A stretch of 64,000 nt of DNA, from assembly GCA_019057815.1 (NCBI GenBank), contig JAHLWR010000004.1:64001-128000 (forward strand), in the 5' to 3' direction. The stretch comes from Candidatus Heimdallarchaeota archaeon (GTDB lineage Archaea > Asgardarchaeota > Heimdallarchaeia > Heimdallarchaeales > Heimdallarchaeaceae). This document shows positions 18,593-51,038 of this stretch, one piece after another. The translations under genes were made by a program, and so were the position numbers. The notes under the pieces were generated by a model. The model was not told the DNA's origin, ran no database searches, and saw only the letters and a list, made by a program, of their open reading frames with translations. Every line of letters starts with the position of its first letter. The first letter of the stretch is position 1.

Positions 18593-19315
18593 ATGAAACG
18601 TTGTATTATTTATGCACGAACCTCTACTGCTGATCAAGAATCAGGTTTGGAAACTCAAATCGATGATGTAACGTCAAAAATATATCAAGCAGGCGAAAGG
18701 GAGATTGTTAAAATCATAAAAGATGAAGATTGCCCAGGAGACAGTGATCCTGAATATAGAGCGGGTTTTAAGGAAATTCTTATTATGGCCTCAGAAGGAC
18801 AATTTGAAGAGATATGGAGTCAATCTAGAGATAGATTATCTAGAGATGTAGACATTCTTGGATATATTCGAGTTATATTAAAGAAAAAAGATATTTCAAT
18901 AGTTTGTTTAGATGATGAAGATAATAAAACCATAACTCGTATTAAAGACCTTTTTGGAGAGATGGAGCTAGAGAAGTATAGAGAAAAAAGATACAAGGGA
19001 ATGATGAGACGAATAAACGAGAAAAAAGTTATGTCAAGACCTCCTTTCGGCTATGCAGTGGGAGATAGTGGTTCACTATTAGTTGACGAAAGTAAAAGAG
19101 GGATAATTAGACGTCTTTTTAGTGAATTTGATAACCCTTTTGCTTCACTGAAAACCCTCAGTATCAAATATAACATTCCTGTTTCAACTTTAAGGAATAT
19201 TCGTTCAAATGAAGTCTACAGAACTGGAGCTGTTCGATGGGCTGGAAAGATAGCATATTACATCGAGCCAATTGTCCCAGAAAATACAGATCAGATGTTG
19301 TATGTAAAAGATTAG
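18593..19315 (+). CDS. Serine recombinase (resolvase catalytic domain plus short recombinase/HTH domain)
   Basis: YARTSTADQ catalytic Ser motif, RAGF, DRLSRD, PPFGY. Confidence 0.92.
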   Translation: MKRCIIYARTSTADQESGLETQIDDVTSKIYQAGEREIVKIIKDEDCPGDSDPEYRAGFKEILIMASEGQFEEIWSQSRDRLSRDVDILGYIRVILKKKDISIVCLDDEDNKTITRIKDLFGEMELEKYREKRYKGMMRRINEKKVMSRPPFGYAVGDSGSLLVDESKRGIIRRLFSEFDNPFASLKTLSIKYNIPVSTLRNIRSNEVYRTGAVRWAGKIAYYIEPIVPENTDQMLYVKD

Positions 19316-32482: not shown

Positions 32483-33873
32483 ATGAGCTAAGTTCTTTGT
32501 ACAAGGACTTATTTTGGTTTAAACGGAACTATGTTGAGGAACAACAGAGCGACGTGAAGGTCGACTCAGACAACCACTACCACCTATCTTCTCAAGTGAA
32601 GACTCAGGGGCTACTTTTTTGAGGATGTTTAATGCACCATTAATATCAGCATTCAAAACTAATCCACAGTTAGAGCAAACGTATAATCCTCGATATTTGC
32701 GATTGGCTTTTCTTCGCTGACCACATTGAGAACAGGTCTGAGAGGTGTAGGCTTCATCAACTTCCTTATAATCAATTCCATGAAATTCACTCTTCGTTCG
32801 CAATTTATGCTTGAATAAACTGTAAGTAATGTAGTGAAAATTCTGTGTAGTTCTCTTACCCAACCTACAATTCTTTTTAATGTTTTTCATTTCCCCAATG
32901 ACTATGGTGCCAATATTGTTTATTTTACAATGTTTGATTATCTCGTTTACTGCTTGAGACATGAAGTTACGCAAATAATACTTTCTTTTTCTGTCTAATT
33001 GCATCATTTTGGTGCCAGTTTTGATCTCTTTCTTATCATATTTTTTTTGTAATTCTGCTTTCTTCTTATTCCACCAACGATTAAAAGATTTTATTCCACG
33101 TCCTTCGATTATGAAGGCTGTCCCGTCAGTGTCAACTATTGTTGCGAAATTATCTAACCCTAGGTCAATTCCCAGATATTTAGTTTCGTCAATATTGATA
33201 CTTTCTTTCTCCTTATAATAAACAAACACTATTTCGAAATACATCCCATAACTGCGAGGAAGAATTCTAACTTCTTTCACTTTTTCCGCTCTAAGATGAC
33301 TAGGGAAGCTAAATCTCAAGAACCGTTTATTAAGATTTTTTGTTATCCACTTTCCAAGTGAGAGTCTGATTGTTTTCCCTTGCACTTTAAAATAATCAGG
33401 AGTAAAGGAAAGGTGAAAGAATCCTTCTTTTGGTAAGTACCATGGTTCTCTAACCATTTCGGTGTATTTTCCTTGTTTTTTAGCTTTCATTAAGCTAAAA
33501 AAGGATTTGTAAGCTTGTTCGGCTCTTCTAGCGGTTTGTTGTGCTATTTGCGCTGGTAGACGCTGATAATACTCATTTATTTTTATCTTTGGATAGGCTT
33601 TTTTATATGATAGAAATCTTTTCTTCTTCATCCATTCCTCTTTCATTAACCACAGCGTGTGATTATAGACATTCTTTGACCATCGGGAAAGTTTCTTCAG
33701 TATCCAGTACTCTTCTTTCGATAAAGCTCTAAGATGGTTTTGTTGTACCCGATACATCATTATTCTATTCTTATTTTCCTATTTAAACCCCCGTAAGACT
33801 CTTGACTGAAAGTATTCTCTTCTCCCTTTTTTCTTAGAAAGATTTTTCTATCCTTGTACAAAAAAGAGAACCT
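32483..33873 (-). mobile_element. IS200/IS605-family (IS1341-type, tnpB-only) element, 1391 bp
   Basis: Boundaries come from restoring the host ORF. On the minus strand TCTAT precedes the left end and TCAT ends the right end. Subterminal hairpins with GTACA loops occur at both ends. Confidence 0.88.
32519..33760 (-). CDS. tnpB: TnpB RNA-guided endonuclease
   Basis: LGIDLG (RuvC-I), EAYTSQTCSQC...CSNC zinc finger, NADINGALNI (RuvC-III). Confidence 0.95.
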   Translation of the reverse strand: MMYRVQQNHLRALSKEEYWILKKLSRWSKNVYNHTLWLMKEEWMKKKRFLSYKKAYPKIKINEYYQRLPAQIAQQTARRAEQAYKSFFSLMKAKKQGKYTEMVREPWYLPKEGFFHLSFTPDYFKVQGKTIRLSLGKWITKNLNKRFLRFSFPSHLRAEKVKEVRILPRSYGMYFEIVFVYYKEKESINIDETKYLGIDLGLDNFATIVDTDGTAFIIEGRGIKSFNRWWNKKKAELQKKYDKKEIKTGTKMMQLDRKRKYYLRNFMSQAVNEIIKHCKINNIGTIVIGEMKNIKKNCRLGKRTTQNFHYITYSLFKHKLRTKSEFHGIDYKEVDEAYTSQTCSQCGQRRKANRKYRGLYVCSNCGLVLNADINGALNILKKVAPESSLEKIGGSGCLSRPSRRSVVPQHSSV

Positions 33874-41423: not shown

Positions 41424-41622
41424 ATGACTTTATTTTTTTACAAATTCTTTAGAAGTGCTTGGGCACATCATGGGGACGTTACATCCCCTCTTACACCACC
41501 CACACCCTCTTACAAGGATGCTTACGGTTCGCTTTTGGTTTTTTATTAGATGCAGACCTGAGGATTATAATGAAGTTAATGCATAGCTACAACCCTTTGA
41601 AGGATAATCTATATGACACTAT
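41424..41622 (-). mobile_element. Non-autonomous IS200/IS605 mini-element A (199 bp) carrying an omega/reRNA-like scaffold
   Basis: Full-length inverted homolog of 44357-44557; preceded by TCTAT and ending in TCAT on the minus strand. Confidence 0.82.
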
Positions 41623-41714
41623 ATAGAATTCATTGATTAATACCATAATTTAAAATATATAAAAATTCCATCTATTGGTAGAAACAACCAATCAAATAGT
41701 AAGGAGAAAAAACT

Positions 41715-42008
41715 ATGATAAGCAAATCTACAATAATTAATACCTTAAAACAAGAATTTTCATATCTTAAATCAAAGTATTATGTAAAAAAAATAGGTAT
41801 TTTTGGTTCATTTGCAAGGGATGAACAAAGAGAAACAAGTGATGTTGATATTATTGTAGATTTTAACCGACCAATTGGATTTTTCATATTTCTACAGTTG
41901 GAAGATTATATTAGTGAAAAACTTGGTATAAAAGTAGATTTAGTTACACCTGAAGCCTTGAAACCATTACTCAAGGAAGAAATATTAGAGGAGACAATCT
42001 ATGTCTAA
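41715..42008 (+). CDS. mntA: Minimal nucleotidyltransferase antitoxin (MNT)
   Basis: GIFGSFAR.E...SDVDI, KVDLV. Confidence 0.93.
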   Translation: MISKSTIINTLKQEFSYLKSKYYVKKIGIFGSFARDEQRETSDVDIIVDFNRPIGFFIFLQLEDYISEKLGIKVDLVTPEALKPLLKEEILEETIYV

Positions 42009-42345
42009 CAAAAGAGTAAGACTCTATCTACAAGATATAGAAGAATCAATTAACAAAATCCAATCATTCATTGAAGGAATGGGATATGATGATTTTTATT
42101 ATGACGAAAAGACAAAAGCAGCTGTAATTAGAATGCTCGAGATTATCGGTGAAGCTGTAAAAAATATTCCTAATGAAATTAGAATAAAATATGATAATGT
42201 CCCCTGGAAACCAATAGCAAGAATGAGAGATAAGCTAATTCACGCATATTTTGGAGTAAGTTATAAAATTGTGTGGGAAACAATTCAAAATGATCTTCCA
42301 CGTCTATCACAAACAATAAAAGCTATTCTAGAAGATGGAGTTTAA
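42001..42345 (+). CDS. hepT: HEPN RNase toxin (DUF86/HepT)
   Basis: LEIIGEA, RDKLIHAY (Rx4HxY), VWET; overlaps the MNT gene. Confidence 0.93.
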   Translation: MSNKRVRLYLQDIEESINKIQSFIEGMGYDDFYYDEKTKAAVIRMLEIIGEAVKNIPNEIRIKYDNVPWKPIARMRDKLIHAYFGVSYKIVWETIQNDLPRLSQTIKAILEDGV

Positions 42346-42505
42346 AAATCATCCACGTACTAGGAAGTGTATTATTTCCAAGTAATTGAAAATAACTTCT
42401 CTTATACATCACTTGTTTTTCAAGTTTTGGTTAAACCAATCTAATGTCTCTTTAACAATTTCTAGGACATTCTTTAACACAGATTTTGCATGTAATACAA
42501 TCTTC

Positions 42506-43969
42506 ATGATGAGTTTTTGTCCTGTTGTCTTATACGACAGACAGAGGTGAGTGTATTTATTAGAGGTCAAGATATAGCGCACAGGAGATACTCTATACTC
42601 ACTCTAAGCGGATACATCACGTATCCTCCTACCCCGTTCACCTTACATTTAGGTAAAGCTTTCGGATCGCTTTTTTTCAAGATATTGTAGGCAGCATTGA
42701 CATCAGCGTTGATCAGATGACCATGAGAGGATCTAAACAAGCCTCGAGTTATCCGTTTTCCAGCATAGTGCTTCCTAGCTTCTGGGAATTCGTTATCAAG
42801 GAAACTACATTTAGAGGTATACTTTTCGGGGATGGTCTCCACGTTTATCCCTCTCTCTGCTGCTTTGTAGCGTAAGATGTCGATGATTCGCATGAAGGGG
42901 ATGGTGACAAACATTTGGGTTATCTTCTTCCAGAAATGCATCCCTTGTTTCCATTTCTTGTTGTAGCCGATAATCACCTCATGTAGCCCTCGTTCTACCC
43001 ACAAGTCTACCAAGTAACAAGTGAGCTGGTGGATAGCTTCTTTAAGTTTCCTTCGCCACTTCTCCTTAAGCTTGTAGTAGGCTTGCCCATAACTGAGCCT
43101 AGTGTTTCCTTTCAGTAGCTGCCTTTGCTGTTGAGCATATTGGATCTGTAATTGTTTCTGTTTTTTCAAATAGAATTGTGTTATACTCTTTATTCCTTTC
43201 CCTGCATCCTTGATAACAATCGGTTGGTTCCCGAGGTTATCCACAAAGGTGGCAAGGTTGACCATCCCTAAATCTACCGCTCCCTTCCGTATCATCCGTT
43301 TCTGAACTTTAGGTAAGGTTTTCTGATACACAAGTTCAAGAGTATAGCCTACTCTTCGGGGGATGATTCGCACTTCTCTTAGCTTTGTAACGGAGGTCAA
43401 TCGTGTCTTGTAATTGTATCCCACTTTCTTTGGAAGCACTAACCACTCGTTGACGATTCTTGCTTGCTGATTGGTGAAAATCGCTACCACTTCCCCGTTC
43501 TTAGGTTTGTAATTCGGTGGCTTGGGCATAGCGAAGAACTGCTCAGGATTGCTTTTCCACTCCTTTAACGCTTGAAAAAATCCTTTCCAGTTTCTGCACA
43601 GGAGTTTGAGTGTGTGTTGTGCGGTGTGCGCAGGAAGCACGCGGTAACACTCTTCATGCTTAAGTAGCTTATTCAAGTCGTTATAGAATAGAAGTTTCTT
43701 CTCTTTGTTTAATGATCTTTTTATCAGAAAGTTTGCTCGATTATAGAGATTCTTTACTTGATGACACAGTGTGCTTAACGCTGGATGATAGTTCACTTCT
43801 ATACATTCCACTCTCAGCACTGTTGTCATCGCTTCTTTATCTAGATATTCTTATAAAAACTCTCTCAATATCTGCGCTAAACTATCCATTTAAACTGATT
43901 CATCTGTAGTTAATAGTACACCAAGACAAAAACCCATCATAAAACCAACTAATAACATCTTCAGTACCT
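42506..43969 (-). mobile_element. Second tnpB-only IS200/IS605 element (ends approximate)
   Basis: Right end: TGTC-GTATAA-GACA hairpin followed by TCATCAT (end at 42506 or 42509). Candidate left end TTTAT|AGGTAC resembles TCTAT|AGGTTC of the first element. Confidence 0.6.
42567..43829 (-). CDS. tnpB: TnpB RNA-guided endonuclease (zinc-finger-less subtype)
   Basis: AVDLG, IIGYNKKWKQ, EKYTSKCSFLD, RITRGLF, NADVNAAYNI. Confidence 0.95.
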   Translation of the reverse strand: MTTVLRVECIEVNYHPALSTLCHQVKNLYNRANFLIKRSLNKEKKLLFYNDLNKLLKHEECYRVLPAHTAQHTLKLLCRNWKGFFQALKEWKSNPEQFFAMPKPPNYKPKNGEVVAIFTNQQARIVNEWLVLPKKVGYNYKTRLTSVTKLREVRIIPRRVGYTLELVYQKTLPKVQKRMIRKGAVDLGMVNLATFVDNLGNQPIVIKDAGKGIKSITQFYLKKQKQLQIQYAQQQRQLLKGNTRLSYGQAYYKLKEKWRRKLKEAIHQLTCYLVDLWVERGLHEVIIGYNKKWKQGMHFWKKITQMFVTIPFMRIIDILRYKAAERGINVETIPEKYTSKCSFLDNEFPEARKHYAGKRITRGLFRSSHGHLINADVNAAYNILKKSDPKALPKCKVNGVGGYVMYPLRVSIEYLLCAIS

Positions 43970-44162
43970 ATAAAAGCTTTTTCTAAGTCTGGATTTTGGA
44001 CTACTAGTATATCTAAACATAGGACTATCCAAAAGTACTTACTAAATAAAGTGGTCAAAGAAAAACATGAAGAGTTTTTGTCTTCTTATCTCATAAAACG
44101 AGGTGAAAAAAACTCATTATGATTTCAACAATTAGCCAAAGTATTTTTAAAACAAAATCACT

Positions 44163-44591
44163 ATGTTAGTTTTAGTATTCAATCAGATAGATAACGGTGA
44201 TGGTTATACTGACGGAGAAAAAGTAGATCGTGAGATAGATCCAACAGATCCTATTGATTATCCTATGGTACCAGAATTCTCGAGTTTATCTCTACTCATG
44301 TTATTACCTCTCCTAACAGTTATAAGCAGTTTTTTGTACATTTTTGTGGTGTTTATATAAGGTAGTATAAATTATCCTTTGAAGGATTGTAGATATGCAT
44401 CAACTTCATGGTGATCCTCAGGTCTACATCCAACAAAAACCCAAAAGCGAAACCGTAAGCATATTCGTGAGAAGATGTGGGCGGTGTAGGAGGGTATGTG
44501 GCGTACCCATGATGTGCTGAAGGCACTTCTAAAGGATTTGTACAAAATTCATGTCATAACTCTAGTTTTACGTAAAAGAAAGGAAGATTAA
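44163..44591 (+). pseudogene. Remnant 3' end of a surface protein (DGDG repeat + PEF-CTERM-like anchor), interrupted by mini-element B
   Basis: Removing 44357-44557 restores ..VPEFSSLSLLMLLPLLTVISSFLYIFVVFI|TLVLRKRKED*. Confidence 0.8.
44357..44557 (+). mobile_element. Non-autonomous IS200/IS605 mini-element B (201 bp) carrying an omega/reRNA-like scaffold
   Basis: Exact ends from ORF restoration: TTTAT|ATAAGG...GGATTT-GTACA-AAATTC-ATG-TCAT|. The internal segment is homologous to the 3' end of tnpB 42567-43829. Confidence 0.88.
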
Positions 44592-50153: not shown

Positions 50154-50253
50154 TGCAAAAATTTCAACTTAACATTATTAGAAAAGTATTATTTCAAAGG
50201 ATTTGGAATCAGCTTCCCTAACATTTTTATTTGTTTTGATTGAATTCTGGTTT

Positions 50254-50850
50254 ATGAACATCTTCCTTGTCAGACATGGTGAAACAGATTACGGAAAAAA
50301 ACATTTCACAACAGGGCACATTGATATTCCTTTAAATGAGACTGGAAAAAAAGAAGCGCAAGCTACAGCTAAATTTCTAAAAGGAAGAAATATAGTAAAA
50401 ATACTCTCTTCAAGTTTGAGTAGAGCAAGTGAAACAGCTGAAATTATAGCATCAGAACTTAATCTGCCAATTGTAGAATATGATGAGCTCATAGAACATA
50501 CTTCAGGGAAACTTGACGGTGTATCACTCAAAGTATTCTTAGATAAGTTGAAGAGCGTCGGGGATTTTAATAAGATGGTTCTACAGTCAGGAGGGGAACG
50601 TTGGAGTGTATTCACAGAACGAGTATGGAATAAGTTTCTTGATATTGTGAAAGAAAATAAAGATGATGGTAACATCTTAATTGTAACTCATGGAGGAGTT
50701 ACTCGTACAATTATTTCTGAAATATTTGGATCTCCTTACCTTAAAGCACTTTCGCAGGGAAGTTGCTGTATAAACGTCATTAGTTACGATAAAGAAAAAG
50801 AAAATAAGTTCCGTGTGGAACTTGTTAACTACACATACCATATGATATGA
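50254..50850 (+). CDS. Histidine phosphatase family protein
   Basis: LVRHGET, SS.L.RA.ETA, VTHGG. The last two codons and the stop lie inside mini-element C. Confidence 0.92.
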   Translation: MNIFLVRHGETDYGKKHFTTGHIDIPLNETGKKEAQATAKFLKGRNIVKILSSSLSRASETAEIIASELNLPIVEYDELIEHTSGKLDGVSLKVFLDKLKSVGDFNKMVLQSGGERWSVFTERVWNKFLDIVKENKDDGNILIVTHGGVTRTIISEIFGSPYLKALSQGSCCINVISYDKEKENKFRVELVNYTYHMI

Positions 50851-51038
50851 ATTTTGTATAGATTCTTTAGAAGTGCCTACAGCACATCATGGGAACGCCA
50901 CATACCCTCTTACACTTTCTCATTTCTCTAAAATTCATGTTTCTTGGCTTCTAAAACCGCATGTAACATAGTAGTATACAATAAGGTATCTTATAGTAAT
51001 GCTCGTCTTTCTTGGAAGATGAGTGTCTTTGCAGTAAA
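50842..51038 (-). mobile_element. Mini-element C: right ~75 bp homologous to A/B, left part different (left boundary uncertain)
   Basis: 50842-50915 matches the 3' part of A/B through the terminal TCAT. 51001-51044 resembles the repeats at 56719 and 60285. Confidence 0.6.

Follow-up and report, generated by a model that had tools for sequence, protein, structure and literature searches.

In a 64,000-nt stretch of the genome of a Candidatus Heimdallarchaeota archaeon (positions 64001-128000 of contig C1, JAHLWR010000004.1, in assembly GCA_019057815.1; hereafter the window) we found three copies of a short repeat lying amongst tnpB genes. Copy A is encoded on the minus strand at about 41424-41658, the complete copy B on the plus strand at 44324-44557, and fragment C on the minus strand at 50842-50915. 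Between A and B lies a tnpB element of a family that we call T2, group a (42506-43938, minus strand; open reading frame (ORF) 42567-43829), and to the left of A a second tnpB element of a family that we call T1 (32483-33873, minus strand; ORF 32519-33760). An earlier interpretation of this DNA, made without database searches (the sequence-only reading), had described the repeats as mobile IS200/IS605 elements of about 200 bp that keep the scaffold of the TnpB guide RNA (omega-RNA or reRNA) and encode no protein. We compared these mini elements (minis) with the whole assembly (G000, 3.74 Mb in 48 contigs) and with 24 genomes of the host's taxonomic family as well as 16 from other families of the order. 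The results lead us to favour, with caution, an origin of the minis from T2-type transposons and a role as guide-RNA carriers.

The repeats and their right ends had been recognized correctly. A and B shared 82% identity over approximately 192 nt, C matched the final 74 nt at 90.5%, and all three terminated in TCAT, at positions 41424, 44557 and 50842, respectively. The flank of B proposed as its guide likewise stands (AACTCTAGTTTTACGT, 44558-44573, plus strand), its guide position being predicted by analogy with TnpB omega-RNAs. The left ends and the size of about 200 bp had to be revised. In a family alignment of 54 copies (A2), which is the basis of all our conservation, structure and ORF counts, conservation extended 33 bp to the left of the earlier start, with the junction TTAT/AAGCAGTTTTTTGTACATTTTT..GGTGTTTAWATAG (slashes denote junctions). 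A genome of the same genus (G001) carried the vacant site CAGTTAT/AACTCTAG in the context ..CTCCTAACAGTTAT/AACTCTAGTTTTACG.., and a metagenome contig of an approximately 91% identical organism, present in two runs of the window's own source study, joined position 44321 to 44556, skipping 234 bp. The empty site and the skipped segment therefore define B as 44324-44557 (234 bp), with TTAT directly 5' (44320-44323) and TCAT at the terminus. The ends of B had previously been placed by restoring the interrupted ORF, an idea that was sound but had been applied to the wrong junction. With the true ends joined, the sequence regains a PEF-CTERM-like tail (..PEFSSLSLLMLLPLLTVI-TLVLRKRKED and a stop codon), and the same tail is intact in G001. 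As G001 has this tail and no long ORF upstream of it, the interrupted gene may be a remnant in both genomes. In the window the insertion of B removes the final 11 codons of a short ORF (44163-44360, plus strand), whose restored tail, ..PEFSSLSLLMLLPLLTVITLVLRKRKED before the stop codon, resembles a PEF-CTERM sorting signal.

Copies A and C are less complete. The scaffold of A is intact (E-value 4e-33 with our covariance model R2, which was trained on minis alone and yields rough E-values), while its left end and right-end hairpin are diverged, and its left boundary is probably marked by the TTAT at 41662-41659. When an empty site for A was sought in G001, the flanks of this copy were not found there. 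C had been counted as a third element and does share the final 74 nt, but it is only a solo right-end piece (helices P3-P5 and terminus; R2 E-value 4e-19) without promoter and half of the scaffold. It overlaps the final codons of a histidine phosphatase gene (50203-50850), and the sequence upstream of it is unique in G000.

A BLAST search of the whole G000 assembly, as the sequence-only reading had proposed, retrieved 10 full-length copies with 77-92% identity and three right-end fragments (C, C9:31915-31983 and C1:35298-35339), a recurrence far beyond chance. The family was present in 18 of the 24 genomes of the host's taxonomic family, spanning three genera, and in none of the 16 genomes from the order's other families. 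A GTDB-wide scan for the exact right-end pattern gave 37 matches, all of them in metagenome-assembled genomes (MAGs) of Candidatus Heimdallarchaeota. TTAT preceded 42 of the 54 aligned copies and the remainder had mostly ATAT; 53 copies terminated in TCAT and the single exception in TTAT. The first base of the right flank was A in about 50 of the 54 copies and the following base was free, so there is no target duplication.

Precise vacant sites were found in related genomes, where the sequence-only reading had advised looking for them. Besides that of B in G001, a second one, CATTAT/AGTCCC, was present in G003 (L172, ~1906) and G010 (L173) and filled in G020 (L025:1500-1736). The flanks at this polymorphic site were 95-98% identical, so the insertion or excision must be recent. 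Both empty sites were scarless (CAGTTAT/AACTC in G001, CATTAT/AGTCC in G003 and G010). The mini thus inserts directly 3' of TTAT without duplication, ends in TCAT, and has been mobile recently. For some insertions both flanks are common to two or three species (L042 in G003, L013 in G010 and L055 in G020; L060 in G017 and L063 in G014). Such insertions predate the species splits, and the family therefore mixes old, fixed copies with recent, polymorphic ones. The longest ORFs varied in strand and frame across the 54 copies and none was conserved family-wide, so that the description as mobile, protein-less elements proved correct. Nine close copies from genus g1 contain a Cys-rich sense ORF of 41-45 codons (MHQLHGDP..CGRCRRVCGVPMMC; in the window 44395-44520, plus strand), which is not kept in the other 45 copies and is therefore probably a chance ORF of close relatives.

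The genome holds two families of TnpB, the canonical T1 and T2, the latter with 11 copies in the groups a, b and c. On G000, R2 retrieved the 10 minis and the three fragments, and it also matched every one of the 11 T2 genes at the 3' end, with E-values of 3e-13 to 1e-10 (T2c), 3e-10 to 2e-8 (T2b) and 3e-8 to 1e-7 (T2a); the sole other match was at chance level (E 0.6). The postulated homology between the mini scaffold and the RNA-encoding 3' end of tnpB is borne out by these matches of a model built from minis only, and by structural covariation that is retained between the two. The T2a element of the window (Pfam OrfB_IS605 and Cas12f1-like_TNB; R2 E-value 3e-8), whose ends were derived from three copies, is preceded by TTAT at 43942-43939 and finishes with ..CTCATCAT at 42506; its 3' region at 42533-42685 is homologous to the mini scaffold. 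The matches to this gene quoted in the sequence-only reading are present, but the closest relatives of the mini interior are T2c genes elsewhere in the genome (88% over 34 nt). By tblastn, remnants of TnpB residues ~366-407 (..NADVNAAYNIL..KSDPKALP..VGGVGGYV.YP) could be placed at mini positions ~63-190. The left ends of T2 elements read TTAT/..TTTTTGTC..T-run..GAGTTTATATAGGGAAA and are followed by ATG 22-25 nt later, in the same layout as the left end of the mini. Archaeal TATA promoters that drive leaderless mRNAs are known to have this layout. Based on the R2 matches, the tblastn remnants and the shared left-end layout, the mini is thus a fusion of two pieces, a T2-like left end reaching roughly to the start codon and the final ~125 nt of the ORF together with the right end.

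The T1 element had been described accurately with respect to its coordinates, its ends (TCTAT/ before the element and ..GCTCAT/ at its terminus) and its GTAC-loop hairpin. It carries this hairpin and TTTTTTGTACA/TTGTACAAA motifs like those of the mini, and gave no match with R2. The terminal motifs of the mini (TTTTTTGTACA on the left, GAATTT-GTAC-AAAATTC on the right) are nearer to T1 than to T2.

The predicted structured RNA scaffold of B occupies 44384-44557 on the plus strand (R2 E-value 4e-36). RNAalifold on the 54 copies gave six helices, namely P1, an inner P1b, P2 with outer and inner parts, P3, P4 and the right-end hairpin P5, with standard pairs in 97.4% of cells. Compensatory changes were found in five helices. 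We counted 14 double-change pairs, compared with 6.6±1.6 in shuffled alignments (0 of 500 shuffles) and 3-7 with slid partners; the controls documented for the pair-counting tool indicate that kinship among sequences can by itself raise counts above those of shuffles, even without structure. In alignment columns 80/111, for example, 28 copies have C-G and 24 have A-U. Several positions are conserved G·U pairs, which assigns the fold to the tnpB-sense strand. The hairpin singled out in the sequence-only reading (GGGTATG in B, GGGGATG in A and GGATACG in tnpB) indeed covaries: in a joint alignment with T2a, T2b and T2c, P2 and P3 were 95.6% paired, with 52 double-change cells against 16.6±4.5 in shuffles. 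The GTGC/GCAC hairpin noted there is also retained among the minis, and both strands of the putative ATGAT/TCAT pseudoknot are invariant among them. The right-end hairpin GAATTT-GTAC-AAAATTC lies 7 nt from the end and is 97% paired. A preceding model, R1, in which a terminal long-range helix replaced P3 (RNAalifold on a shortened alignment), was discarded in favour of the structure supported by pair counts. The Rfam gathering scan of the window matched no family. No significant hairpin was detected at the left end of the family, where two candidates had to be rejected for want of support; the one around the TATA-like box was 81% paired, not above shuffles. A proposed covariation of the target pentamer with an internal left-end sequence was rejected too, as it depended on the earlier, erroneous left boundary and its helix found no support across the family.

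Upstream of the scaffold lies an internal TATA-like box, TTTATATA (44352-44359, plus strand; TTTAWATA in the family), about 24 nt before helix P1. The junction of B had been thought to create this box. As the supposed junction TTTAT/ is the internal box itself, this is not the case; the box is conserved and inherited from the left end of tnpB. Column conservation reached 0.90 at the transcription factor B recognition element and TATA box, fell to 0.75 in the spacer, and was 0.90 in P1, 0.915 in the core and 0.96 at the right end. By its position and conservation the box presumably acts as a promoter.

Taken together, we consider it probable, albeit with considerable reservation, that A, B and their relatives are 234-bp non-autonomous derivatives of a T2-type tnpB-only transposon that carry a guide scaffold for TnpB in trans. 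They would resemble the palindrome-associated transposable elements (PATEs). These derivatives of IS200/IS605, which encode no protein, were defined in Haloquadratum (Dyall-Smith et al. 2011, PMC3119063) and often encode omega-RNAs that TnpB acts on in trans (Meers et al. 2023, PMC10055086). An internal deletion would have fused the left end of the parent, with the TATA box driving its leaderless tnpB mRNA, to the end of tnpB and the right end, and the retained 3' part would be the region encoding the guide-RNA scaffold. Transcription might then start from the mini's own TATA box, 1-3 nt before helix P1, and yield a scaffold of ~175 nt that extends into the adjoining DNA. A T2-type TnpB produced from another locus of the genome could load this RNA and cut the vacant allele (TTAT plus flank), after which homologous recombination would restore the mini or keep it in place. 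Such maintenance by cutting of the vacant allele has been demonstrated experimentally for full-length IS605 and IS607 elements. Each guide would accordingly serve the maintenance of its own element and not a defence repertoire. The sequence-only reading had proposed a dispersed repertoire of guides, and it is true that each insertion puts a new flank at the guide position, but the flank-derived guides had no second match in the genome and matched only the copies' own flanks, which is why we favour self-homing. T2 TnpBs were abundant in mini-bearing genomes (up to 29 matches) and numbered 0-4 in members of the taxonomic family without minis, a trend that is not independent across kin and in which the mini match counts include short T2c 3'-end matches.

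Several observations weigh against this explanation. B folded singly was no better than its shuffles (z -0.8), and the structural evidence is therefore comparative and not thermodynamic. The module from P3 to the terminal hairpin differs between minis (ATGAT-GTGC..GCAC-TTCTAAAG) and all T2 copies of G000 (TTAGAG..ATGAC-CTCTAA). A tnpB with the mini-type right end (CCCATGATGTGC..GCACTTCTAAAGAATTTGTACAAAATTCATGTCAT) was found neither in 41 relatives nor by the GTDB-wide pattern scan: partial right-end matches in relatives had no tnpB upstream, and the 27 of the 37 GTDB matches that could be judged (the rest lying at contig ends) were mini, solo or interrupted copies, none joined to tnpB. The TATA-like box could be a cis signal for transposition, and the top-strand covariation might equally reflect a role of the single-stranded DNA in that process. 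T2 TnpBs themselves are unusual and only putative nucleases. While the 11 proteins, including that of the window (42567-43829, minus strand), possess the RuvC-I Asp (VDLG) and the RuvC-III Asp (NADVNA), the canonical RuvC-II Glu is replaced by Tyr/Gly (VIIGYN), with a Glu in ..IPEKYTSKC.. instead, and they have no CxxC..CxxC zinc finger; the T1 protein is canonical. The T2 proteins may belong to the class with a "C-terminally shifted glutamate" that Yoon et al. described and that has been reported for IS607-linked and other clades. A PDB sequence search with the T2a TnpB gave nothing at E<=0.001.

From such points one could argue that the minis are inert deletion derivatives, plain PATEs or MITEs (miniature inverted-repeat transposable elements) moved in trans, whose conserved interior reflects DNA-level needs or ancestry and whose RNA has no role with TnpB. 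The thermodynamically ordinary fold of B, a P4 module unlike that of the resident T2 genes, the lack of a cognate tnpB among the genomes searched and the behaviour of related sequences in the pair-counting controls would all agree with this, as would the haloarchaeal PATEs with C-terminal tnpB remnants, to which no function was assigned (PMC3119063). We nevertheless regard inertness as rather unlikely: four deep helices, 25-190 nt from the end, show compensatory changes that were far fewer with slid partners, the TATA box is more conserved than the spacer though there is no ORF to express, and copy A retains its scaffold while both of its transposition ends have decayed.

The persistence of the scaffold in A would also suit recruitment of the minis by the host as small-RNA genes with a promoter of their own, either regulatory RNAs or guides for a nuclease-impaired, DNA-binding TnpB, without selfish homing. 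Orthologous insertions in three species (both flanks are common to G003, G010 and G020) and the non-canonical active site and missing zinc finger of T2 TnpBs point in the same direction. Against this, the guides consist of whatever DNA flanks the insertion and match nowhere else in the genome, close relatives are polymorphic for the copies, B interrupts the end of an ORF, and many T2 copies keep their transposon ends, unlike domesticated TldR-type genes. We therefore judge host recruitment to be very improbable.

With TnpB-guide carriage as our preferred explanation, the question of the mobilizing enzyme arises. The idea that minis borrow a TnpA in trans found no support. Only two genes for a Y1 transposase (PF01797) were found in G000, both within an IS608-like tnpA-tnpB element of the IS605 group (C8:9805-11724 and C4:62367-64144, or L001 and L002; 96% identical, with tnpA and a 429-amino-acid tnpB). 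This element is preceded by TTAC, terminates in TCAA and carries GC-rich subterminal hairpins, and its ends are unrelated to those of the mini; the same is true for the ends of an autonomous IS605 element in G007. PF01797 was also absent from the search results in 15 genomes of genus g3, which had up to 17 mini and 29 T2 matches; these are MAGs with a listed completeness of 72-92%, and unbinned contigs or viruses could hold transposase genes. Homologues of IS607-type serine TnpA occurred in G000 and in 4 of 10 g3 genomes, none of them adjoining a T1 or T2 tnpB.

Mobility by something other than Y1 peel-and-paste, that is by a serine recombinase (IS607-like, with a shared AT core) or another unrecognized enzyme, would be compatible with a guide-RNA role, and we regard it as possible, though on the unlikely side. 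The g3 genomes without PF01797 nevertheless show insertion polymorphism at 95-98% flank identity, and the only Y1 elements of G000 have the unrelated TTAC/TCAA ends. The dinucleotide AT is found at both junctions of the mini and once in the empty sites, as fits an IS607-type core. The left and the right end are partly inverted repeats of each other (TTTTGTACA/TGTACAAAA), tandem 9-mers occur in T2c, a convincing left-end hairpin was not seen, and the shifted Glu of T2 belongs to a class reported for IS607-linked, amongst other, clades. However, a strong 4-nt target (TTAT) on the left only, a TCAT that the element itself encodes and a hairpin placed 7 nt from the right terminus form the pattern of IS200/IS605 elements, IS607-type TnpA is patchy in distribution and not linked to T1 or T2, and the MAGs are incomplete. 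A bolder proposal, which we hold to be quite improbable, is that the minis represent an RNA-only selfish lineage, devoid of a nuclease or transposase of its own, that has persisted and kept moving across at least three Heimdallarchaeota genera and in genomes in which no Y1 transposase was found, spread together with tnpB-only elements by an undescribed mechanism. This could be an unrecognized transposase or a route dependent on TnpB and omega-RNA. If true, it would bear on how IS1341-type elements and PATEs move in archaea without a functional TnpA. What we consider most worth pursuing is that these elements moved recently in genomes where no Y1 transposase was detected.

Other features were noted in the window and the genome. 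Between A and the T2a element, the region 41715-42345 (plus strand) encodes a nucleotidyltransferase MNT (41715-42008) that overlaps a HepT-like RNase (42001-42345), a pair of toxin-antitoxin type. A resolvase-type serine recombinase gene (18605-19021, plus strand; 240-amino-acid ORF MKRCIIYARTSTADQ..) has no tnpB beside it. A second gene-less repeat family of ~325-375 bp was found in G022 (L038 on contig C81, 516-845) and in G000 (C8:42394-42766, C20:11817-12190, C1:35383-35757, C27:57831-58110 and C12:160783-161062). The ends of this repeat match the flanks of an IS607-like element with a serine TnpA and a large TnpB (G000 C27:145855-148593). One of its copies interrupts the G022 mini within helix P2, and another adjoins the mini right-end fragment at C1:35298.

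In the literature we found no paper on omega-RNA-bearing PATE-like elements in Asgard archaea, whose mobile elements have been little studied. The idea of PATEs that bear an omega-RNA and are served by TnpB in trans has been published before, and the value of our findings is therefore mainly documentary and that of an experimental handle. The family offers a natural example of a transposon reduced to a promoter-like box, its ends and a guide-RNA scaffold, documented by 54 copies with compensatory changes and by empty sites. It also provides a compact, putatively self-promoted scaffold for testing T2-type TnpBs with their shifted catalytic glutamate and without zinc finger.

Among known systems, MITEs have terminal inverted repeats and target-site duplications and depend on DDE transposases. 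The mini resembles them in being short, multi-copy and non-coding with partly inverted-repeat ends (TTTTGTACA/TGTACAAAA). However, it has no target-site duplication, its ends are asymmetric and its insertion is oriented after TTAT. Its two junctions have just a constant AT(A) in common and diverge at the following base, and an apparent ATNN duplication was rejected because its N positions disagree between the left and the right junction. The likeness to PATEs is much broader and includes the absence of genes, a size of ~0.2 kb, insertion beside a short conserved oligonucleotide without target duplication, a near-terminal palindrome at the right end, strain- or species-specific insertions, and an origin in a tnpB-only (IS1341-type) element of which, as in HqIRS71, a C-terminal tnpB remnant is left. 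The mini differs from PATEs by its Asgard (Heimdallarchaeota) host and by a deletion that fuses the tnpB TATA box directly to the scaffold. A full-length parent with the mini right end was not found among the genomes searched, a left-end palindrome is not evident, and most host genomes show no Y1 TnpA. Similar to the TnpB omega-RNAs or reRNAs of IS605 and IS607 elements (ISDra2, GstTnpB, CboIStron), the predicted scaffold is drawn from the 3' end of tnpB and the right end, stops at the element boundary, places the flank at the guide position, has a transposon-associated motif equal to the target motif (TTAT in the mini) and adopts a multi-helix fold with covariation. Unlike these, the mini, known here from its sequence, encodes no protein in cis, has a P4 module that differs from the resident T2 genes and matches no Rfam family, and carries an additional long helix, P1, made from former coding sequence.

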